From Patescibacteria group bacterium (GTDB lineage: Bacteria > Patescibacteriota > Patescibacteriia > JAXHNJ01), in contig JAXHNJ010000002.1 of assembly GCA_034520665.1 (NCBI GenBank), positions 179,166 to 243,165 of the forward strand: a DNA stretch of 64,000 bases, read 5' to 3'. Under the pieces are notes generated by a model. That model worked only from the letters and a program-made list of their open reading frames with translations, did no database searches and was not told the origin of the DNA. The first letter of the stretch is position 1, and the number at the start of each line of letters is the position of its first letter. Of this stretch, positions 2,136 through 56,140 are shown piece by piece. The position numbers were made by a program, and so were the translations under genes.

Positions 2136-5100
2136 TTATTCAATAAGATAGCCCATATAATCAAATTGAACTACTTCTGGCGCTCCCGACATTTCTGAAG
2201 TAATAATTTCGTCTAAACCATCATTATTAACATCACCACTGGATACATAAACTCCATTTCTATTACTAGAAGAAAAAGCAAAGAATTGGCCGACCACGCC
2301 ACCATTAATATCTAGCATTCGCACATGCGGGGCTTTATTAAAGCTAGTACCGGTAATAATTTCCTGGGTGCCATTACCATCAACATCACCAGAAGCTAAA
2401 TTAACCCCACCCCGATAAGCTTGGGCATAAGCAAAAAACTGAGAAATCAAATTTCCATTGCTTTCAAATACACGAATATGAGGACCACCACTTTGATAAG
2501 GAGCGGTAATTACTTCGCCTTGGCCATTATTATTAACATCCGAAATTAAAACATTAATACCAATTCTAAAATGTTCTGGATAAGCAAAAAACTGGTCAAT
2601 TAAAGATCCCTGACCATTAAAAATTCTAACATGAGGCGCTGAAGCTCCCATAGTGCCAGTAGCAATTTCCGCCACACCGTCACCGTTTACATCCCCTACT
2701 GCCAAATTTACTCCTCTTCTAAAAGCTAAAGCATAAGCAAAAAATTGATTTTCCAGATTGCCATTCATATCAAATATTCTCACGTGAGGTCCACCACCTG
2801 GTCCAGCGGCTGTTACTATTTCTTTTTGACCATCCCCGTCAACATCACCAATATCTAAATTAAAACCCCCGCGAAAACTGTTTTGATAGGCAAAAAACTG
2901 ACTCTTTATATTCCCTAAAGAGTCAAAAACTCTGACATGAGGACCGCCACCCTGGCTGGTGCCAGTGACTATTTCCGCCGTGCCGTCGCCGTCTAAATCA
3001 GCCGTGGCTGTTTTTACACCGCCTGTGTAAAGCGAAGAGTAGGCTTTAAAACCATCACCAGATTCTAAAGAATAAAAAATATGAGGCACTTGTCCACTTG
3101 AATTAGTTACTGTAAAACCAACCGACAAGAGATCACTTTGTCCATCAGTGTTTTCTACCTTAACATCATAATAGCCCCCGGACATTTGGCCCAAAGGAAT
3201 AACCACAGTCATTTGCTCTGAACTTTTTACATAACTAATAGCTTCATGATCACCAAAATAAGTAGTAGCGCCGTGACGGAAATTTTGACCGTATAAGTCT
3301 AAGTAGGCTTGATAATCTGAGTTATCAGTTACTGATAAACGATTAGGGCTGACTGAACTGACCACTGGCGCTTCACTAGTATAAGGAGCCACGCCTCTAA
3401 TATTTATTTTTCTAATCATATCATTCCAGGAATCACAAACATATAAATATTTGGTATCATTATCAATAACCATACCCATTAAATTATTAAACTTTGTATC
3501 CGTACGGCTGCTATTATGAAATCCTCTGGTGCCTGAACCGGCTACTAGCTTAACAATATCTGAATTGAGTTCAACTAATCTAACCCGATGACTACCAGAC
3601 TCAGAAACAAAAACTTTATTAGCATAGTATTTTACATAAACTGGATAGGAAAAAACCGCTCTGGAAGCAAGTCCATCTAAATAGCCGTTTCGACCATCAC
3701 CAGCTACTGTAGTAACTTTCCCCGTAGAAATTTTTACCCGACGTATTCGATGATTATCTCGATCAGCCACATATAAGTACTGACCTGAGGAATCAATATC
3801 TATGCCATAAGGATGATTAAATTTAGCGGCTGCGCCCATACCGTCAGCAAAACCAGCTTCACCCGAGCCAGCAATAAGCCAAGTTTGACCGTCTGAAATT
3901 CGTACCTTTCTAATACGGTTATTACCGGTATCAGAAACATACAAATACTGATCATCGGGAGAAATAACTAGATTAGCCGGAATATCAAAAAGAGTCGTAT
4001 TTTTAGTACCTTCCTGATAGCCATTACCAGAGCCGGTAACATTAGTATCACCGCTGCCAGAGACTAAAAACGAGCTCTGATTGGCAATATTTACTCCTCT
4101 GATACGATTATTCCAGCGATCGGCTACATAGAGAGTATCACCGCTTGAATTAATGGTAATGCCGGAAATATTGGAAAATCGAGCGGCTGAGCCTGTCCCC
4201 TCTTCATTATTATAACTGTCAACACTGTTACCAATAACAAAGCTGGTATAACCAGTTGATAAATTTATTTTTCTGATTTTATTATTTTCAGCCAGGTAAA
4301 TATAATTGCCATCCGGTGACTTGACCATATCATAAGGACGGCCGATTAAAGCACTGGTGGAATAGCCATTACGATAACCAAAACGGTCTGACCCGACATA
4401 AACTTCATTGTCAGAGGCATCATTTTTGTTATAGCGATGAATAGTGCCGTTGCCGGCCAAATAAATATAATCGCCATGAATACGCACACCCGAAGTCGGA
4501 TAAATACTGGTCATCGAAGAGTCATAAGCAAACTGGGTAGTCTCCCCTGTTTCTGGATTAATTTTTCTAATAACCCCAATACGATTTTCATCCTCATCAG
4601 TCACATATAAATAACCTGAGGAAGCATCATAAGCAATGCCATAAACCATTCTAAAACTAGCATTACTGCCAGTACCTTCTTCATAAGCACTAGTGCTTGA
4701 GCCAGCAATTAAACTAACACTGCCAGTTGAAGTATTGACTTTAATTACACGATTATTACCTTCATCAGCCACATAAAGAGTGCTTCCGTCTGAAGAAATA
4801 GCCATTTTTCTGGGGCTGCTAATTGAAGTAGTTAAGTTATAAACAGCTCCGTTAGAGCGATTTACTTTTTTAATAGCATTATTACCGGTATCAGCAATAT
4901 ATAAATAATCGCCTTGAGCTAAAATGCCTTCTGGTGAAGATAACCCAGAAGAAATGTAAGTACTAACACTACCATAAACATCAACTTTACGAATCATGTT
5001 ATTACCGGTATCAGCTACAAAGACATTGCCGGAAGAATCAACAGTCACTCCTTTAGGTAAAGCAAATTCGGAAAGTTCAGCCGAAGCATTATAATAACCA

Positions 5101-8985: not shown

Positions 8986-9535
8986 TTTTCTCCACTCCCT
9001 TTCCTTTCAAGTAAAACAAAAAAAACATCAAATTCCGTGATTTATTTATTGGAGTAAACTCCTTTTTAAAGAACAAGTAAAGTTACAGACAATTATTTAT
9101 TGTTAGTAACTATAGAGATTAGCATTTATTGTTAGATTTGTCAAGTGCCAGTATAAATCTCACAAAAAATATAGCGATTTTTTTAGGAAAGAAATTAAAG
9201 ACTTAATTATAATAAGAATTGTCTTTCTTTTACGCGTAGGCGGAGATTCATCTCCGCTATAATTATTTTTTTTAAGAGCGTAGATGTCAGTCGCGACTGA
9301 CATCTACTAAATTATTTTAAGCATATTTCTACTCAACTTGTCCCGAGCTGCGCGAGGCGATCTAAATAGTGATAAACACTATAGTGTTAAAGTGCTAAAT
9401 AAAAGATTTATCTTTAATTAGCTCTATTTAATTATTAAAAACCGCCAGAAATATGTACCTAAAATTTAATAAAGTTTCCAGGGTTTACAAAATAAAAGTA
9501 TCAGTAGTAACTTTTATTTTTTAAAGATTTCTCTG

Positions 9536-10408
9536 CTACTTCCCGTTACTTCTATTACATTTAATACCTTCTTCAAAGCCCTGACAAAAAATCTCTCCGT
9601 CTTTATCATTCCTCAATATCTCAATATCTTGATCATTCAATCTTTCAATAGCCGCCTCATGCGGATGGTCAAAACGGTTATCCTGACCGCACTGAATAAT
9701 GGCATAGGCCGGGTTAACTTTCTTAATAAAATCACGATCTGAAGAATACTTTGAGCCATGATGCCCTACTTTTAAAACATCGGCTTTTACGGTTAAATTA
9801 TTGGCTATTAGTTTTTTTTCTATCTCTTTAGAATTATCACCAGTGAATAAAAAACAATGCTCAAAATAACAAAGCCGATTGACAATAGAAGCGTCATTAA
9901 GATCCTCAAACTCTTGGCCTGTAATATCTTCAAAGGGATATAAAGTTTCTAAATATAAATTTTTTGATAAAATAAATTTGTCACCAGCTAAGGTTTCACT
10001 ATAGTCAATTTCTTTTTCCTTAATTAATTTTTGCCACTGCTTATAAGTAGACGAATTATAATCAATATCAAAGCCCAAAACCTGATCGACTTCATATATT
10101 TTTAAAACTTCCACTAGTCCATTGACATGATCAGCGTGTGGATGAGTCAAAATCATTAGCTCAATATCTCGGTTCCAAAAACTCATGTGTTTATCCAATT
10201 CATTGATTACTGCTTTGCCCGGTCCCCCGTCAATAAGAATATCCTGACCAGCTGGAGTTTGAATTAATATAGAATCTCCCTGGCCAACATCTAAAAAATA
10301 AACCTTTAATAAATCATTTTTTGAAGAATTTAGACTAAATATTAAAAAACATACAATACTAATTAAGCCTAAAAAAACATAGAATAATTTTTTATTAGGA
10401 ATAAACAT
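9536..10408 (-). CDS. comEC: ComEC/Rec2 C-terminal metallo-beta-lactamase domain protein (290 aa)
   Basis: YFLDVGQGDSILIQTP...ILIDGG...MILTHPHADHVNGL is the MBL-fold signature of ComEC. An N-terminal TM helix is present. Confidence 0.8.
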   Translation of the reverse strand: MFIPNKKLFYVFLGLISIVCFLIFSLNSSKNDLLKVYFLDVGQGDSILIQTPAGQDILIDGGPGKAVINELDKHMSFWNRDIELMILTHPHADHVNGLVEVLKIYEVDQVLGFDIDYNSSTYKQWQKLIKEKEIDYSETLAGDKFILSKNLYLETLYPFEDITGQEFEDLNDASIVNRLCYFEHCFLFTGDNSKEIEKKLIANNLTVKADVLKVGHHGSKYSSDRDFIKKVNPAYAIIQCGQDNRFDHPHEAAIERLNDQDIEILRNDKDGEIFCQGFEEGIKCNRSNGK

Positions 10409-10410
10409 AA

Positions 10411-11871
10411 TTAATTTTTTAATTCTTTTCTAAAAAGTGGTTTTTTTATTAATATTATAATAAGGAAAATAATTAGATATATAATTAATATTAAATTAAA
10501 ATCAAAGTTTTCTATGGCAAAAGAAGAGAATTTTATCTCACTTAAAAAACTAGCTGCTCCACTAATATATTTTAAAAGTAAATAACAAGGCCAAAATATT
10601 AATTGCCCCAAAGGTAAAAATATTAAGGAAAAAATTACACCCAGAAAACCGCTGATTAAGACAAAGGGTAAAACCGGCAGAACTAATACGTTAGCCAGAG
10701 GAGCAATTAAAGAAAATCTTTGAAAATAAAAAATTATTAAAGGCAGAGTAAAAAACTGGGCTGAGAGAGTCATTAAAACCGTACTTTTTATATTGAAAAT
10801 TTCCGGAACTTTTTCTACTAATTTTTCTAAATAAGGACCAATATAAATCAAACCCAAAACGGCTAAAAAAGAGAGCTGAAAACCAATATCATATCTTAAC
10901 AATTTAGGATTAACCAAAAGCATTAAACTGCCAGCTAGGACAAAAGCATTAGTCGAATTATTTAACCGGCCTAGATACATAGCCAATAAAACCAGAAAAC
11001 CCATAATGCCGGCTCGCACGGCTGAAGACGGCATACCCACCAAAATAATAAATAGAAATAATCCGGCACTTGCCAGCCAAAAAGCTCGTCGGCGGTTTAA
11101 ACCCAGACCCAAGGCTAAATTCATCAAAATACCGGCAATAATAGTGATGTGGAGCCCGGAAATGGCAATAATATGACTGATACCGGCTTTAGAAAAATTA
11201 TCCCTAACCTCATCGGGAATTTCCTTTTTAAGGCCTAGCATCATAGCTTGCAAAATTGAAGACTGCGGTTGTTTAAGACTGATCTTAATAGTTTCAGACA
11301 TGTGATTTCGTATTTTATATATATTGGCTAAAAACCAAGTCCCCTTATTTCTTTCTATAATCTCTATTTTCGGTTTATAGCTAACTAAATAAATATTATA
11401 ACGACTTAGATAGGACCGATAATCAAAATCCTCAAAATTTTCTGGCTCTTTTATCTCTCCGGTTATTAATAAGATATCTCCGTAATGATATTCCGGATAT
11501 AAACCAGAGGTGATTAATAAATTCTCATTTTTTAAATGGCTTTCTTTTATTTTTACTTTAACTTTTTGATTATCTCCTTTTGTCGGTTCCTTATAAACTA
11601 AACCTTTTAATTTTTGATTATTACTCTCTATTTGGGGCGGCTCTTTAATGCTTAACTGAAATCTAACCAGACCAGCCAGACAAAAAATTAAACAAAATAA
11701 AATAATTCTAAAAATTTTATACTGCCAAAATAAAATTATTAAAAAAATAATAATTATCAATAAAATGAATAAATAAAAATAATTAAAATAAAAAAAGGAA
11801 GCCAAAGCTAGGCCCAAAATAAAAGAAATTAATAAATATAAAAATATTTTTGATTTAGAAAAATAATTCAT
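10411..11871 (-). CDS. comEC: ComEC/Rec2 N-terminal part: DUF4131 plus the polytopic competence channel domain (486 aa)
   Basis: GISHIIAISGLHITIIAGIL...MPSSAVRAG is typical of the ComEC competence domain. Many TM helices are present. It ends TAA-TT-ATG against the MBL ORF, in a different frame. Confidence 0.8.
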   Translation of the reverse strand: MNYFSKSKIFLYLLISFILGLALASFFYFNYFYLFILLIIIIFLIILFWQYKIFRIILFCLIFCLAGLVRFQLSIKEPPQIESNNQKLKGLVYKEPTKGDNQKVKVKIKESHLKNENLLITSGLYPEYHYGDILLITGEIKEPENFEDFDYRSYLSRYNIYLVSYKPKIEIIERNKGTWFLANIYKIRNHMSETIKISLKQPQSSILQAMMLGLKKEIPDEVRDNFSKAGISHIIAISGLHITIIAGILMNLALGLGLNRRRAFWLASAGLFLFIILVGMPSSAVRAGIMGFLVLLAMYLGRLNNSTNAFVLAGSLMLLVNPKLLRYDIGFQLSFLAVLGLIYIGPYLEKLVEKVPEIFNIKSTVLMTLSAQFFTLPLIIFYFQRFSLIAPLANVLVLPVLPFVLISGFLGVIFSLIFLPLGQLIFWPCYLLLKYISGAASFLSEIKFSSFAIENFDFNLILIIYLIIFLIIILIKKPLFRKELKN

Positions 11872-12412
11872 TTATTTTATCTTCATTTATATATTGATAA
11901 GGTTGTTTTGAATACTTTTTTGATAAATTATGCTTTTTATAATTATATTTAATGTAATTAATTGTATTACGGAGTCTTTTTGGGGTATTAATAATGCGAA
12001 AATTAAAACGAGTATGCCAAGGTGAATAAAAAATATTATATTGATTTCGCAATTGATAGCAATAATATGATTTAACAGCATGCATTAGATCAGATATATT
12101 ATATTTACTACGGCTCGTTGTGGCTGCATTTTTAATTTTTCTTTTATTTTTTTCACTGCGGCCCGCTGTGGCCGCAGTTTCAAAAAGAGCAGGCGCAGCG
12201 GCCAGCGCTGGAATAAATTTTACTAACATATGAATATGATTATTTAAAATACTAAAAATATAAGGAAGAAAAAACTTTTTCTTACTGGAAATAAGAACAA
12301 TTTTATATAATAATTTTGCCTTTTTTGTATCGGCAAAAAAAGGGTAATTATTTTTTGTATTAAAAGTAACAAAATAGGGAAATATATTTTGATATATCCT
12401 TCTTTGAGTCAT
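11855..12412 (-). mobile_element. IS200/IS605-family (Y1 HuH, RAYT-like) transposase-like gene, 185 aa. A single gene with no obvious IS ends.
   Basis: HuH motif NNHIHMLV. A C-terminal Tyr-containing helix, NTINYIKYNY, is comparable to IS608 TnpA YIENQ. An Ala/Gly/Arg-rich segment, TAATAGRS...AATTSRS, sits where IS200 TnpA has TAKGRSSR. It overlaps the comEC 5' end by 17 nt. Confidence 0.55.
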
Positions 12413-12480
12413 TAAAAAAAGCGGCTCCTTTCATAAGCCACCTTATTTTTATCTTAAATTATTACTTATAAAAAGTCAAA

Positions 12481-14313
12481 TTATTCCACGGTGACACTCT
12501 TAGCCAGATTTCTTGGCTGGTCCACATGACAGCCCCTTAAAACAGCCAAATGATAAGCCAGAAGCTGCAAAGGAATAACCGTTAATAAGGGTGTAATAAT
12601 TTCTTCAGTCTCAGGTACATAAATAACGTGGTCAGCCATTTTTCTAATTCTTTCGTCTCCCTCAGTAGCTATACAAATAACCTTACCCTGACGAGCCTTA
12701 ACTTCTTCAATATTGCTGATTATTTTTTCATAAATCGTGGAATTACCAGTAGCAATAAAAACCACCGGCATATTTTCATCTATCAAGGCGATGGGCCCGT
12801 GTTTCATTTCAGCCGCTGGATAGCCTTCAGCATGAATATATGATATCTCTTTAAGCTTTAAAGCTCCTTCCAAAGCTACTGGGAAATTATAACCACGTCC
12901 AAGGTACAAAAAATTATTTGCCTTTTTAAATCTACCCGCTAAATCTTTAACGACTTGGCTTTTATCTAAAGCTTTTTTTACCTGTTTTGGTATTACTTCC
13001 AAAGCTTTTAAATATTTTTTAATTTGCTCAGGCTTTTTTCTTTTCAATTCCTGAGCTAAATAAAGCGAGAAAAGATAAAGCGCTGTTACTTGAGAAGTAA
13101 AAGCTTTAGTCGAAGCCACACCAATTTCCGGTCCGGCATGAATATAAACACCAGCATCTGTTTCTCGGGCAATACTAGAGCCAACCACATTAACAATACC
13201 CATAACCTTGGCTCCTCTTTTCTTGGCTTCTTTTAAGGCGGCTAAGGTATCAGCTGTCTCACCCGATTGACTAATAACGATAATCAGAGTTTTTTTACCG
13301 ATTATTGGATGACGATAACGAAATTCTGAAGCATAATCTACTTCCACTGGCACCCCAGCCATTTCTTCAATTAAATATTCGCCCAAAAGCCCAGCGTGCC
13401 AGGAAGTACCGCAAGCTGTGATAATTATTCTTTCAAAATCTTTAAATTTATCTTTTAAGGAGAAAAGTCCGCCTAATACTAATTTACCCTTGCTTGAATC
13501 AATTCGACCACGGAAAGCATTTTTAATAGTTTCTGGCTGTTCAAAAATTTCCTTTAACATATAGTGAGAATAATTTGCTTTTTCTAATTGCTGCAGATCC
13601 CAATCAACTTCTTTAATACATTTAATTACCTTACTATTGGTTATGGTAGATATTTTAAAGTCATTTCGACTCAAAACAGCCATTTCTTTATCGTCTAAAT
13701 AAATCACTTTTTTAGTCTGAGAAATAAGCGGCGTAACATCTGAAGCTACAAAAAACTCATTTTCTTTTATACCAATTACCAAAGGACTACCGTTTTTAGC
13801 TACAATAATTTTATCCGGCTCATCACTGCAAACTATAGCTAATCCATAGGCACCCTCAAGTTGTACTAGGGCTTTTTGTACAGCTTTTTCAAAATTACCC
13901 TTATAATACTTTTCTATTAAATGAGCAATAACTTCGGTGTCAGTATCGGAAATAAATTTATGGCCTTCTTTTATTAAAAGTTCTTTTAAAAGAGAATAGT
14001 TTTCAATAATACCGTTGTGAACTACGGCAATTTTCTTATGACAATCAAAATGAGGATGAGCGTTCTTCTTATTAGGCCTACCATGGGTAGCCCAGCGAGT
14101 ATGGCCAATACCAAAACTACCTTCAATGCCTTCTTTTTTAATAGATTTTTCCAGTTCTTTAATCTTGCCTTGGCATTTACGGTATACCAGTTTATTTTTA
14201 TTAACTAAAACCACGCCAGCTGAATCATAGCCACGATATTCTAAACGTTTTAAACCTTTTATCAAAAGAGGTAAGGTTTTTTTAGGGCCAATATAGCCTA
14301 CTATGCCACACAT
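12481..14313 (-). CDS. glmS: Glutamine--fructose-6-phosphate aminotransferase (isomerising)
   Basis: MCGIVGYIG at the N-terminus is the class II amidotransferase Cys1 motif. Two SIS domains and a C-terminal ...KSVTVE are present, over 610 aa. Confidence 0.95.
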   Translation of the reverse strand: MCGIVGYIGPKKTLPLLIKGLKRLEYRGYDSAGVVLVNKNKLVYRKCQGKIKELEKSIKKEGIEGSFGIGHTRWATHGRPNKKNAHPHFDCHKKIAVVHNGIIENYSLLKELLIKEGHKFISDTDTEVIAHLIEKYYKGNFEKAVQKALVQLEGAYGLAIVCSDEPDKIIVAKNGSPLVIGIKENEFFVASDVTPLISQTKKVIYLDDKEMAVLSRNDFKISTITNSKVIKCIKEVDWDLQQLEKANYSHYMLKEIFEQPETIKNAFRGRIDSSKGKLVLGGLFSLKDKFKDFERIIITACGTSWHAGLLGEYLIEEMAGVPVEVDYASEFRYRHPIIGKKTLIIVISQSGETADTLAALKEAKKRGAKVMGIVNVVGSSIARETDAGVYIHAGPEIGVASTKAFTSQVTALYLFSLYLAQELKRKKPEQIKKYLKALEVIPKQVKKALDKSQVVKDLAGRFKKANNFLYLGRGYNFPVALEGALKLKEISYIHAEGYPAAEMKHGPIALIDENMPVVFIATGNSTIYEKIISNIEEVKARQGKVICIATEGDERIRKMADHVIYVPETEEIITPLLTVIPLQLLAYHLAVLRGCHVDQPRNLAKSVTVE

Positions 14314-14326
14314 GTTATAAAAATTA

Positions 14327-15416
14327 TTATTTTTTTCTCAGATAATATTCAATAAATTTATCAATTTCACCGTCTAAAATTTCTTCTATATTTGACTGTT
14401 CATAATCAGTACGGTGATCTTTAACCATTTGATAAGGATGAAGAACATAAGAGCGAATTTGGTTGCCCCAGGCCGCTTCATGATACTCACCCCGTAATTC
14501 TTCTTTTTTCTGCTGTCTTTGTTTTTCGGAAATTTGATGGAGCCGACTTTTTAATATTTTTAAGGCATTTTCTTTATTTTGTCTCTGAGACCTTTCATTC
14601 TGGCAACTCACAGTAATTTTTGTCGGTAAATGAGTTATTCGAACCGCTGAATCTGTTTTATTAACTGACTGCCCCCCGTGACCTGAAGCCATAAAAGTAT
14701 CTATTCTTATATTTTTGTCCTTTATTTCCACTTCGGCATCTTTTTCCAATTCAGGGATTACCTCTACCAAGGCAAAAGAGGTGTGTCTCATTTTCTCGGC
14801 GTCAAAAGGAGATATACGTACCAGGCGGTGAACACCATTTTCTGATTTTAAAAATCCGAAAGCATAAGAGCCAGAAATTGCAAAAGTAACGCTTTTTATA
14901 CCAGCTTCCGAGCCAACAGATTTATCGTGAATTTTTACAGACCAGCCTTTTTTTTGACAATAACGCAGGTACATTCTAAGTAGCATACCAGCCCAGTCTT
15001 GAGCATCAACACCACCAGCTCCGGCGTGAATAGAAATAATAGCATTATTTTTATCGTATTTTTCGCTTAATAAAATAAAAAATTCAAGTTCATTAAATTT
15101 TTCCTTTAATTTTAACAGCTTATCTTCAATCTCATTTTTTATAGAAAAATCTTCCTCTTTTAATGATTCATTGGCTAGCTCCAGAAGAGTTTTATTTTCT
15201 TTTTTTATATTATTCCAAGTTTCAATTTCTTCCTTAAGCTCTTCAAAACGACGACTTTTGTTTTCGGCCCTTTGGCGATCCCGCCAAAAATCCGGCTCTC
15301 TCATTTCATACTCCAGTTTTTTCTTTTCTATTTCCTTTTTTTCTAAGTCAAAGAAACCCCCTTGCTCGTTCTATTTTTGAGCTAAGATTCTTTATTTCTT
15401 TAATTAAGTCTTCCAT
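14327..15416 (-). CDS. prfB: Peptide chain release factor 2, with programmed +1 ribosomal frameshift near 15347-15353
   Basis: GGQ motif (SGHGGQSVNKT) and SPF motif (RISPFD) indicate RF2. Upstream ORF0, ATG 15416 MEDLIKEIKNLSSKIERARGFL, ends at CTT TGA C and is preceded by AGGGGG. A +1 shift joins it to ...DLEKKEIEKKKLEYEMREPDFW. Confidence 0.9.
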
Positions 15417-19399: not shown

Positions 19400-19635
19400 C
19401 TCTCCTTAATAAAAAAACCCTGACTTCGGCAATTAAACAAGGGTTTTTAAAATTATTAAATCTTTCTACCGAAGATTTGTTATCTAAAAGGTGTCCTGGC
19501 TTACAGAGGATTGGCTCGTCAGCCCCTTCCCCTAAAAAAGAGTGGTTATGGCCGCCTGGCTTCTCTGCTTACAGTGACGGGATCGCGCCGGATTTGTTTT
19601 TGACTTAAAAGCAAAACGCACCGGTCTTCCCTTTT
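19400..19635 (-). promoter_or_regulatory. Cobalamin (B12) riboswitch with an intrinsic-terminator expression platform
   Basis: The minus strand reads ...GGTGCG...AAATCCGGCGCGATCCCGTCACTGTAAGCAGAGAAGCCAGGCGGCC.... This matches the cobalamin aptamer consensus (GAAUCCGG, the B12 box CCCGCCACUGUAA with one substitution, and AAGCCAGGA). A hairpin AACCCTTG...CAGGGTT plus a U7 tract is followed by the AAGGAG RBS of the DUF4430 gene. Confidence 0.8.
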
Positions 19636-19674
19636 TTTCTTAAAAATTTTATTTTTAAGAAAAATATTTAATTA

Positions 19675-20208
19675 TTAATATTCAATACCTTTTCTTGCTT
19701 TTAATCCCTGGTCAAAATAATGCTTGTTTTTATTCATGATAGTTACCAAATCTGCTAGCTTAATAATTTTATCATGAGCGTTTCTTCCCGTCAAAACAAT
19801 CTCTGTGGATAAAGAATTATTTTTTAAAAACTTAATGAGTCTATCTTTTTTTATTAAACCAAAATCAAGGGCCACATTAATTTCATCTAATATTACTAAA
19901 TTATATTTTTTATTTTTAATTTTTTTAATGGCATAGGCCAAGCCTTTTTCGGCTCTTTCAAAATCTTCTTTTTTTATTTTGCTCTTATCAATAAATTTAT
20001 GGCTACCAAATTGTTTAATTTCTAAATTATTAAATTTTTTTAAGGCCTTAATTTCACTATAATCTCCTTTTTTCATAAACTGTATAATCAGGACTCGAAA
20101 ACCAGCTCCTAAGGCCCTTAAAGCTAAGCCTAAAGCAGCTGTAGTTTTTCCCTTACCTTCTCCCGTATAAACTTGAATCATATTTAGCCTAATGAACAGG
20201 CTGACCAA
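19675..20208 (-). CDS. cobO: Cob(I)yrinic acid a,c-diamide / cob(I)alamin adenosyltransferase (CobO/BtuR family)
   Basis: IQVYTGEGKGKTTAALGLALRALGAGFRVLIIQFMKK is the BtuR P-loop signature. The start may be the internal ATG at 20181, directly after the nrdJ stop. Confidence 0.85.
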   Translation of the reverse strand: MVSLFIRLNMIQVYTGEGKGKTTAALGLALRALGAGFRVLIIQFMKKGDYSEIKALKKFNNLEIKQFGSHKFIDKSKIKKEDFERAEKGLAYAIKKIKNKKYNLVILDEINVALDFGLIKKDRLIKFLKNNSLSTEIVLTGRNAHDKIIKLADLVTIMNKNKHYFDQGLKARKGIEY

Positions 20209-38033: not shown

Positions 38034-38105
38034 ACAGCTGAGCCCCGTCTCCCGCAGGGAGACGGGATCCCGATTTCCGACAAAGTCGGAACATCGGGAC
38101 TAATC
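38034..38105. repeat. 72-bp direct repeat, copy 1 of 2 (copy 2 at 38468-38539, one mismatch). Contains a perfect 10-bp-stem hairpin plus GGGATCC.
   Basis: acagctgagCCCCGTCTCCCgcaGGGAGACGGGatcccgatTTCCGACaaaGTCGGAAcatcgggactaatc occurs twice, 434 bp apart, bracketing the GIY-YIG gene and tRNA-Val. Confidence 0.85.
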
Positions 38106-38467: not shown

Positions 38468-38539
38468 ACAGCTGAGCCCCGTCTCCCGCAGGGAGACGGG
38501 ATCCCGATTTCCGATAAAGTCGGAACATCGGGACTAATC
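38468..38539. repeat. 72-bp direct repeat, copy 2 (see 38034-38105)
   Basis: Identical to copy 1 except gacaaag/gataaag. It lies just 5' (on the minus strand) of tRNA-Val. Confidence 0.85.
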
Positions 38540-54190: not shown

Positions 54191-54362
54191 TGAAAAACTT
54201 GAAAATATAAAGACATCATCAATCTTAACAACATCGCGGGGTGGAGTCCCGTCCCGTTGAGCGGGACGAGGATCCGCGTTATCATCATATAACGATGATA
54301 ACGGGACAGTGGTATATTGAAAAACTTGAAATAAAAAAAGATATCATCAATCTTAACAACAT
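54191..54362. repeat. Partial duplication of the tRNA-fMet 5' flank plus its first 12 nt, fused to GC hairpin elements
   Basis: gaaaaacttgaaa...atcatcaatcttaacaacatCGCGGGGTGGAG occurs at 54191-54245 and again at 54318-54375 (the real gene). The first copy continues into TCCCGTCCCG-TTGA-GCGGGACG-AGGATCC and a 10-bp-stem hairpin, CGTTATCATC-atataac-GATGATAACG. Confidence 0.75.
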
Positions 54363-54437
54363 CGCGGGGTGGAGCAGTGGCAGCTCGCCGGGCTCATAAT
54401 CCGGAGGTCGAGGGTTCGAATCCCTCCCCCGCAACCA
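54363..54437 (+). tRNA. tRNA-Met (anticodon CAT), initiator-like, CCA encoded
   Basis: CGCGGGG-TG-GAGC-AGTGGCA-GCTC-G-CCGGG-CTCATAA-TCCGG-AGGTC-GAGGG-TTCGAAT-CCCTC-CCCCGCA-A-CCA. The C1xA72 mismatch is typical of the bacterial initiator. Confidence 0.8.
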
Positions 54438-54462: not shown

Positions 54463-54906
54463 GCCAGGGTAGCTCTCGCCCGCTAGCGCCTGAGCGCAAG
54501 CGATGGCGAGCGGGTAGTTGATTAGAGCGTATATTAAATTTTAAAAGCTAAATTATACTACTATAAATTATAAGCCAGGGTAGCTCTCGCCCGCTAGCGC
54601 CTGAGCGCAAGCGATGGCGAGCGGGTAGTTGATTAGAGCGTATATTAAATTTTAAAAGCTAAATTATACTACTATAAATTATAAGCCAGGGTAGCTCTCG
54701 CCCGCTAGCGCCTGAGCGCAAGCGATGGCGAGCGGGTAGTTGATTAGAGCGTATATTAAATTTTAAAAGCTAAATTATACTACTATAAATTATAAGCCAG
54801 GGTAGCTCTCGCCCGCTAGCGCCTGAGCGCAAGCGATGGCGAGCGGGTAGTTGATTAGAGCGTATATTAAATTTTAAAAGCTAAATTATACTACTATAAA
54901 TTATAA
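54463..54906. repeat. Tandem array of four identical 111-bp units, each beginning with the first 13 nt of the downstream tRNA-Met gene
   Basis: Units start at 54463, 54574, 54685 and 54796. Each reads GCCAGGGTAGCTC + tcgcccgctagcgcctgagcgcaagcgatggcgagcgggtag + ttgattagagcg + a 40-nt AT-rich tail. A fifth unit at 54907 is the intact tRNA. Not CRISPR-like: there are no unique spacers. Confidence 0.9.
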
Positions 54907-54983
54907 GCCAGGGTAGCTCAGTTGGTTAGAGCACGGGACTCATAAGCCCGGGGTCGTGGGTTCGAATCCCACCCCTGGTACCA
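54907..54983 (+). tRNA. tRNA with CAT anticodon (elongator Met, or Ile2/lysidine type), CCA encoded
   Basis: GCCAGGG-TA-GCTC-AGTTGGTTA-GAGC-A-CGGGA-CTCATAA-GCCCG-GGGTC-GTGGG-TTCGAAT-CCCAC-CCCTGGT-A-CCA. Confidence 0.8.
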
Positions 54984-55924: not shown

Positions 55925-56140
55925 TTTATGTCAAGAAAAAAGAAATACTCCGATGCCCTCCCGGTCCGCCGCACAAGACTTTGGCAGGCGGGGCCTCGGA
56001 GCTTGACCATTAATAAAGATTTGGCTGCGCTGAGTCCTGCACGCCGAAGCCTATCATATTATTAGTTTACTTATAATTTAGGCTCCGCTATCCTTCCCCA
56101 AGGCCAAGTATTGGGGCTGGCCGCGAAGGCGTGTCAACCA
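55925..56140. ncRNA. GC-rich (~55-60% GC in a ~33% GC genome) structured island. Candidate small RNA of unknown class; strand undetermined.
   Basis: Multiple GC helices are visible, for example CCCCAA-ggccaagta-TTGGGG with a possible pseudoknot to CTGGCC, and CGGAGC...GCTCCG. It has no coding potential longer than 26 aa. It lies between two minus-strand genes. Confidence 0.3.

Follow-up and report, generated by a model that had tools for sequence, protein, structure and literature searches.

In-frame REP-like hairpins within the gene of a single-copy RAYT-type HUH nuclease of Patescibacteria

In the classification of TnpA_Y1 proteins by Quentin, Siguier, Chandler & Fichant (2018), subclass 2.4, which corresponds to Bertels' RAYT group 4, is distinguished by a highly variable insertion between β3 and αC that derives from repetitive extragenic palindromic (REP) sequences lying in frame inside tnpA_REP, besides the REPs that flank the gene (PMC6006769). 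In known REPtrons, the REPs are found within about 1 kb of the gene (PMC6006769). The REPs of the E. coli RAYT/TnpA_REP (4ER8; Messing et al. 2012, PMC3479197) flank its gene, are dispersed in hundreds of copies and carry a GTAG tag, and REPINs, in which two similar inverted hairpins are separated by a short spacer, are extragenic and number tens to hundreds per genome (Bertels & Rainey 2011, PMC3116915). REPs and Rickettsia palindromic elements are also known in frame in other genes, and the latter are tolerated in the surface loops of functional proteins encoded by many unrelated genes (PMC3733652). Here we describe a RAYT-type gene with in-frame hairpins from a Patescibacteria group bacterium, found in a 64-kb stretch of contig JAXHNJ010000002.1 (hereafter the window) that is AT-rich, with a GC content of 34%. 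In-frame REPs inside a RAYT gene are an already described phenomenon, and the present case extends it to a new lineage, the Patescibacteria; the additions are modest, namely an apparently exclusive location of the hairpins within the gene, a contrast with relatives that lack the insert, and variants among closely related strains.

A first-pass annotation of the window had described an ATG-started open reading frame (ORF) of 185 aa (Table 1) as a TnpA-like, IS200/RAYT-like protein, on account of a HIHMLV motif and a C-terminal tyrosine helix. Profile searches bore this out. Pfam Y1_Tnp (PF01797, 'Transposase IS200 like') matched with 24.6 bits against a cutoff of 23, and NCBIfam REP_Tyr_transpos (NF047646) matched with 47.5 bits (E 1.6e-12); because this score is under the equivalog cutoff of 80, the protein is a relative rather than an equivalog. 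HIHMLV occupies residues 59–64, and Tyr153 (codon 11954–11956), which falls in a helix predicted for residues 144–160, was invariant in an alignment of 18 family sequences, as was the N-terminal MTQRR. Trp132 and Asn157 were nearly invariant in this alignment; Asn157, conserved in at least 90% of the sequences, fills the third polar metal-ligand position at Tyr+4, and the Tyr153 segment aligned with YIYINP of E. coli TnpA_REP. The family consensus motifs are [DN]H[VLI]H, WQ and YIxxNPxK, and the corresponding motifs of the window copy are NHIH, WH and YIKYNY. The best Protein Data Bank (PDB) match of the family profile was 4er8, the E. coli TnpA_REP/RAYT (E 5e-11), and the transposases of ISDra2, IS608 and IS200 followed at a clear distance. 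Consistent with this, an AlphaFold2 model (mean predicted local distance difference test score (pLDDT) 84.2, predicted template modelling score 0.77) had a TnpA-like α/β fold, for which the top Foldseek match in the PDB was again 4er8, followed by ISDra2 and IS608 TnpA, and the top 30 matches were all TnpA_REP or IS200/IS605-family TnpA proteins. The catalytic set (His59, His61, Tyr153 and Asn157) is intact, as is the modelled fold, and the protein is a Y1 HUH protein nearer to RAYT than to IS200. Its homologues were found almost only in Patescibacteria, with a few in Nitrospirota.

The gene sits between glmS (12481–14313) and a comEC-type gene (10411–11871), and this order is kept in the closest relatives, loci L033 (82% aa identity) and L011, at ~85% nucleotide identity. 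The 17-nt overlap with comEC that the first-pass annotation had reported recurred in independent gene calls for L001 (the same DNA) and for L011. By contrast, the distant homologues P0002, P0007, P0012 and P0013 all lie in different, unrelated contexts among housekeeping genes, indicating that the overlap is a lineage-specific feature and not one of the family. IS ends, which the annotation had likewise failed to recognize, were found on neither side of the gene: in the 68-nt spacer on the glmS side a terminator-like hairpin is the sole feature, and downstream the space is taken up by the coding sequence of comEC. The window contains one copy of the gene. Comparison with L033 gave a dN/dS of 0.20 for the core and 0.53 for the insert described below, which places the core under purifying selection. 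The motifs, the structure match, the synteny and the purifying selection fit a domesticated RAYT-type gene rather than an insertion sequence, in agreement with the earlier suggestion of a domesticated copy. The terminator-like hairpin carries the Shine–Dalgarno (SD) sequence of the gene in its 3′ arm, and an analogous anti-SD/SD hairpin, CCTTCCCC-loop-GGGGAAGG-TTTTTT-ATG, was present in most of the homologues from the candidate phyla radiation that were folded (over the 48 nt that precede the ATG, loci L035–L071), directly before the start codon. A stem-loop that occludes the ribosome-binding site has been reported at the 5′ end of IS200, and the 5′ hairpin of the RAYT gene resembles it.

The part of the protein that follows the HuH strand differs from the rest of the gene. 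It is the only low-confidence part of the AlphaFold2 model (pLDDT <50 for residues 74–101), its GC content is 0.44 across residues 64–105 compared with 0.20–0.21 in the flanking parts of the gene, and across the family the region varies in length and sequence and is missing from the 151-aa Nitrospirota members. Within this disordered loop, we identified three related GC-rich hairpin elements, all in frame. The window has just 10 GC-rich perfect hairpins, and hairpin 2, with its perfect stem, is among them. Hairpin 1, its inverted partner, differs from a perfect L033 hairpin, AGCGCAGGC-CGCTGT-GCCTGCGCT, by three substitutions, two of which break pairs in the stem and one of which lies in the loop. 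Hairpin 3 is an older remnant identical to hairpin 2 at 19 of 24 positions, each difference being G/C in hairpin 2 and A/T in hairpin 3, and it is more decayed still in L033 and L011. The first-pass annotation had noted a 19-nt near-repeat here and interpreted it as the duplication of an Ala/Gly/Arg-rich helix. The repeat itself (12110–12128 and 12158–12176) is present, with 15 of 19 positions identical and all four differences transitions, and its sites are the only two matches in the window to the 24-mer with up to 5 substitutions. The helix was not upheld, residues ~67–103 being predicted as disordered, and the near-repeat reads instead as one intact and one decayed hairpin copy, with decay by GC-to-AT transitions. 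Between the window and L033, hairpin 2 underwent a compensatory T:A to C:G pair change, which combines a synonymous change with a Ser-to-Gly change.

Forty-two homologous metagenomic loci were fetched, and the 32 that were parsed comprised 230 kb. The insert, which makes up 4.3 kb or 1.9% of this DNA, held 36 of its 88 GC-rich perfect hairpins, and none occurred in the rest of the genes at these loci (13.5 kb). Dinucleotide-preserving shuffles of the inserts (n = 300) yielded 0.95 ± 0.99 hairpins and never more than 4, which excludes chance palindromes as the source of the 36. The hairpins fell into two classes with a common architecture, in which an outer stem CC(G/C)A/T(C/G)GG is followed, after one mismatch, by a CGC/GCG foot and then by an inner stem that varies. 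It is the loop that tells the classes apart: it is 4 nt long in one, whose translation gives motifs such as RTLExVR, and 6 nt long (CGCTGT or ACAGCG) in the other, whose translation gives motifs such as AQAAVPA or APTAGCA. Within one gene, the first and second hairpins are mutual reverse complements, including loops and flanks, and thereby form inverted doublets like those of REPINs. All three reading frames were used equally (17/19/16). Several stem positions covaried in both classes (0 of 500 shuffles matched the observed covariation score), and the outer pairs, which had no part in the hairpin selection criteria, also changed in a compensatory manner. A test for selection at the RNA level gave 15 G:T and 21 A:C mismatches on the sense strand, showing none of the asymmetry expected of RNA. 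The use of three frames, the covariation of the stems, the compensatory change between the window and L033 and the lack of a G:T bias show together that it is the pairing of the DNA that is constrained, rather than a peptide or an mRNA structure. What the family conserves in these hairpins is a nucleic-acid structure and not a peptide.

Near-identical strains gave a view of how the hairpins change. L033 and L011, which were recovered from separate metagenomes, share 99.0–99.3% identity over 3.7 kb; the only substantial difference between them is an indel of 58 nt, and this matches the hairpin doublet exactly. Since the doublet is common to the window and L033, it is L011 that lost it, and the L011 gene is consequently frameshifted into ORFs of 99 aa and 76 aa. 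A programmed −1 frameshift at an A AAA AAA run is possible on paper as an explanation for the split gene; simple inactivation is the likelier one, given that the gene of L033, which is set apart by the 58-nt unit alone, is intact. In the near-identical genes of L058 and L067, one hairpin has been replaced by a different one with the flanks conserved, and L045 and L061 have the two hairpin types in exchanged places. Pseudogenes are common in the family (L034, L036, L060, L066, L068, L072 and L011), with stops or frameshifts often in or beside the insert, as in L034, L036, L060 and L068, and in two copies, L034 and L066, the first His of the HuH motif has become Tyr. Some contigs carry two divergent paralogues, such as Ga0180007_10000458 (L034 and L050), and L035 is accompanied by a degenerate second copy at ~3997–4401. 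The indel, replacement and swap patterns are consistent with gain, loss and turnover of the kind seen for mobile elements, events that the enzyme may itself catalyze.

We then considered where else such hairpins occur, within a scope set by the window and by ~6 kb of flank per side (less on short contigs) from 33 other genomes. The exact hairpin 2 is unique in the window at up to 3 mismatches (0 expected). No REP-like hairpins flanked the window gene, either in the 68-nt upstream spacer or on the downstream side, and hairpins of the family type elsewhere in the flanks of the homologues were few and mostly belonged to extra paralogues of this gene that are partly degenerate. A scan for CTRCGGCYCGYTGTGGCYGCA of a genome-contig collection, evidently one that did not contain the source genome, returned 21 single chance matches in high-GC genomes and none in Patescibacteria. 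At gathering thresholds, Rfam found nothing in the window at the in-gene hairpins or at the tRNA-adjacent hairpins discussed below, its only matches being five tRNAs and a cobalamin riboswitch. The 151-aa Nitrospirota members without the insert (L062 and L075–L079), which are syntenic with one another, have 2–4 extragenic hairpins within ~1.1 kb, of the form CGCGGAG-N5-CTCCGCG, or AACGCACAG-N5-CTGTGCGTT in L062. This is the layout of a classical REPtron and the reverse of the Patescibacteria case; in the gene-dense Patescibacteria genomes, the hairpins appear to lie inside the gene rather than beside it. It is plausible that the tiny intergenic spaces are the reason for the in-gene position; in the window, 68 nt separate the gene from glmS, and its end overlaps comEC by 17 nt.

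Compared with described systems, the Patescibacteria clade comes close to subclass 2.4 (PMC6006769; RAYT group 4 of Bertels et al. 2017), whose signature [N/D]H[IVL]H, WQ and YIxxNP it matches loosely. Both have proteins of ~180–200 aa with a few divergent paralogues per genome, a β3–αC insertion that varies in length and sequence and is built of in-frame REPs, and hairpin stems that start with G–C pairs. Judged by motif signature alone, without reference sequences, the window protein is compatible with the subclass 2.4 motifs NH[IFV]H, WQ and YIxNNP and also close to subclasses 2.5 and 2.7, and no named cyanobacterial member of subclass 2.4 was among the best 120 matches of a second profile search. 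In contrast to subclass 2.4, the Patescibacteria clade had no flanking or nearby extragenic REPs, and the 8-aa αB insertion was not evident, the family being colinear with 4er8 from RR to HxH (60 versus 59 residues). In line with RAYT/TnpA_REP proteins of class 2, Y-x3-N is kept, and low copy number, vertical inheritance and housekeeping-like behavior were seen in the window and its relatives; the flanking hairpins of REPtrons are absent. The HUH and Tyr core and the single-copy, domesticated state are likewise those of the E. coli RAYT, whereas the hairpins here lie within the ORF, are untagged and were not seen dispersed. The doublet resembles a REPIN in having two similar inverted hairpins with a short spacer that behave as one 58-nt indel, and differs from it in being translated and in having been seen only once. 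Like Rickettsia palindromic elements, the palindromes are tolerated in frame in a surface loop, although here they are confined to the gene of the enzyme family whose substrates they are expected to be.

We therefore propose, with a probability of about 0.7, that the gene encodes a domesticated, single-copy single-stranded DNA nuclease of the RAYT/TnpA_REP type, the loop of which is encoded by in-frame REP-like hairpins that are probably its cognate substrate. The hairpins would be bound as single-stranded DNA, for example on the lagging-strand template, and, by analogy with the chemistry of TnpA_REP and IS608 TnpA, Tyr153 would cleave beside the hairpin, with His59, His61 and Asn157 coordinating a divalent metal. 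The doublet might then be excised or inserted by the enzyme. The hairpins that survive would be frame-keeping insertions in a permissive, surface-exposed loop, and events that break the frame, of which the loss of 58 nt in L011 is an example, would kill the gene. The confinement of hairpins to the loop and the frequency of pseudogenes would both be explained, because only frame-preserving events in the loop leave a working gene. Several observations weigh against this proposal. That the protein binds and cuts these particular hairpins is something we infer. The window copy departs from the family consensus (WH for WQ and YIKYNY for YIxxNP), the residues with which the E. coli protein reads GTAG (E100, H101 and R104) are not conserved in the family, and the hairpins, CC(G/C)A-N-CGC...GCG-N-T(C/G)GG, differ from those of subclass 2.4 in lacking a GT[AG]G foot. 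No further copy of the in-gene hairpins was found in the other 63 kb of the window at up to 3 mismatches in 22 nt or up to 5 in 24 nt, and when the flanks of the homologues (186 kb) were searched for the hairpins of the respective genes, one near-copy turned up in all, directly at the end of its gene. With the hairpins all but missing outside the gene within this scope, no dispersed population that the enzyme could serve is apparent. Finally, the junction ambiguity of the 58-nt indel is only 1 nt, and the indel could stem from a hairpin-stimulated replication deletion or an assembly error instead of enzymatic excision.

Other explanations have to be set against the proposal of an enzyme encoded together with its substrate. 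A bolder version of it, unlikely in our estimation, is that in Patescibacteria this RAYT clade has become a self-contained module, in which the enzyme's only cognate hairpins are those inside its own frame and no REP population is dispersed in the genome, so that the enzyme, by excising, re-inserting, inverting or replacing the doublet, would remodel or frameshift its gene and thereby act as a self-limiting, possibly reversible on/off switch. If so, the 58-nt loss in L011 would be an 'off' state caught in nature. We consider it quite improbable that the hairpins are not DNA substrates of the enzyme and work instead at the level of RNA or protein, for instance as mRNA structures that hold down translation of a potentially toxic nuclease, or as a tolerated low-complexity linker whose GC-richness is incidental. 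The conserved 5′ untranslated hairpin that sequesters the SD sequence does make tight control of expression plausible, the insert is disordered, and dispersed copies were not seen. Nevertheless, the mismatches show no G:U bias on the sense strand, the doublets are arranged as inverted reverse complements, for which an RNA element would have no reason, the use of all three frames means that no peptide is conserved, and hairpins of the same style are extragenic beside the relatives that lack the insert.

The first-pass annotation had proposed the gene as a candidate partner for the GC-hairpin repeats around the tRNA genes of the window, given that Y1 HUH enzymes act on hairpin DNA, and these are indeed the only other repeated GC-rich hairpins present. 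This pairing found no support and now seems very improbable. The tRNA-adjacent hairpins, CGTCCCGC-AAA-GCGGGACG, CCCGTCTCCC-GCA-GGGAGACGGG and TCTCCC-TTYG-GGGAGA, have no stem or loop in common with the in-gene hairpins or the family consensus (CGTCCCG... and CCCGTCTCCC... versus the CGC foot and the CGCTGT/ACAGCG loops), they lie inside partial duplicates of tRNA-Asp, tRNA-Val and tRNA-Met, and their distance from the gene is 10–42 kb, as against ~1 kb in known REPtrons (PMC6006769). Scarcely tenable, lastly, is an autonomous or recently dead insertion sequence of the IS200/IS605 type. The name of the Pfam match and the differing genomic contexts of the distant homologues would suit it. Fold and chemistry are those of the TnpA of IS200, IS608 and ISDra2. 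By contrast, the gene has no left and right ends with flanking subterminal hairpins and no tnpB, it has the Y-x3-N of class 2 in place of Y-x3-Q, and its closest structure is TnpA_REP; in place of multicopy behavior we found a single copy in the window, overlapping a housekeeping neighbor by 17 nt, syntenic and under purifying selection in its relatives.

Table 1. Positions, in the window, of the RAYT-type gene, its parts and hairpins, and the tRNA-adjacent repeats.
Feature	Position	Strand	Basis
RAYT/TnpA_REP-like Y1 HUH nuclease gene, 185 aa	11855..12412	-	ATG-started ORF; profile and structure matches
Overlap of RAYT gene end and comEC start, 17 nt	11855..11871	-	sequence conserved in L033 and L011
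Catalytic Tyr153 and Asn157 (Y-x3-N of class 2 'Y---NP'; Pro replaced by Tyr)	11942..11956	-	alignment of 18 family sequences; 4er8 alignment; AlphaFold2 model
Variable insert, ~aa 67-103, between HuH strand (β3) and next conserved helix (αC)	12104..12214	-	disordered in AlphaFold2 model; variable in family
Hairpin 3 remnant, copy 1 of the 19-nt repeat; same orientation as hairpin 2	12107..12130	.	similarity to hairpin 2
Hairpin 2, perfect 9-bp stem ACTGCGGCC/GGCCGCAGT, 6-nt loop (CGCTGT, + strand)	12155..12178	.	hairpin scan
REPIN-like doublet, 58 nt: two inverted hairpins and spacer	12156..12213	.	in window and L033, missing from L011
Hairpin 1, inverted degenerate partner of hairpin 2	12186..12211	.	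match to perfect L033 hairpin
HuH motif codons His59-Ile60-His61	12230..12238	-	CAT ATT CAT on gene strand; His59 and His61 invariant in alignment of 18 family sequences
Terminator-like hairpin and T-run, with Shine–Dalgarno sequence in 3′ arm	12418..12444	-	terminator scan; 5 nt upstream of ATG
GC-hairpin repeats by tRNA-Asp, tRNA-Val and two tRNA-Met genes	1696-1922; 38034-38105, 38468-38539; 54193-54395; 54463-54919		partial tRNA duplicates

The tRNA-adjacent repeats are partial copies of the 3′ or 5′ end of the adjacent tRNA, part of which is replaced by a different GC hairpin. The array at 54463–54919 consists of 4.1 perfect tandem copies of 111 nt between the two tRNA-Met genes, each opening with ~13 nt from the start of the tRNA-Met that lies downstream. 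Possibilities for these repeats are tRNA-derived small RNAs, att-site duplications or pseudo-tRNAs. They were also compared with CGTC repeats, for which no RAYT association has been reported (PMC3733652), and this identity was rejected, since CGTC lies inside the stem of the tRNA-adjacent hairpins.

Several other features of the window were recorded. The comEC gene downstream of the RAYT gene is split in two adjacent ORFs (9536–11871, minus strand), which encode a 486-aa protein with DUF4131 and Competence domains and a 290-aa protein of the metallo-β-lactamase fold. The spacer between the lactamase-fold ORF and an upstream ORF of 672 aa (9240–9307) contains two strong hairpins, GCGGAGA-TTCA-TCTCCGC and a 12-bp stem GTAGATGTCAGT-CGCG-ACTGACATCTAC, unrelated in sequence to those of the RAYT gene. 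The release factor 2 gene (ORF 14327–15304) is preceded on the minus strand by AGGGGG TTT CTT TGA C (15347–15360), the classical programmed +1 frameshift site of prfB, with a short upstream ORF that starts at ~15414. The cobalamin riboswitch (Rfam RF00174, 72.9 bits) lies at 19469–19679 on the minus strand. A GC-rich island of ~190 nt in an AT-rich region (55947–56136) shows long-range complementarity (for example CTCCGA...TCGGAG) and may encode a structured RNA that has escaped annotation; Rfam gave no match to it at gathering thresholds.

For the window itself, these results chiefly clarify what is there: an ordinary gene of a RAYT type that has been described before, without a link to the tRNA-adjacent repeats. 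For annotation they carry a warning, in that the GC-rich, repeat-containing middle of such 'transposase' ORFs is mobile-element DNA and that frameshifted copies may be products of hairpin-element dynamics. RAYTs count as some of the strongest candidates for transposases that have been domesticated. The Patescibacteria clade, with more than 140 protein clusters, offers a minimal enzyme–substrate pair of ~560 bp for biochemistry, because the hairpins appear to be confined to their own gene, and to lie outside it in sister genes without the insert. The natural variants, in which a doublet is gained or lost, a hairpin replaced or two types swapped, suggest that the activity is ongoing.

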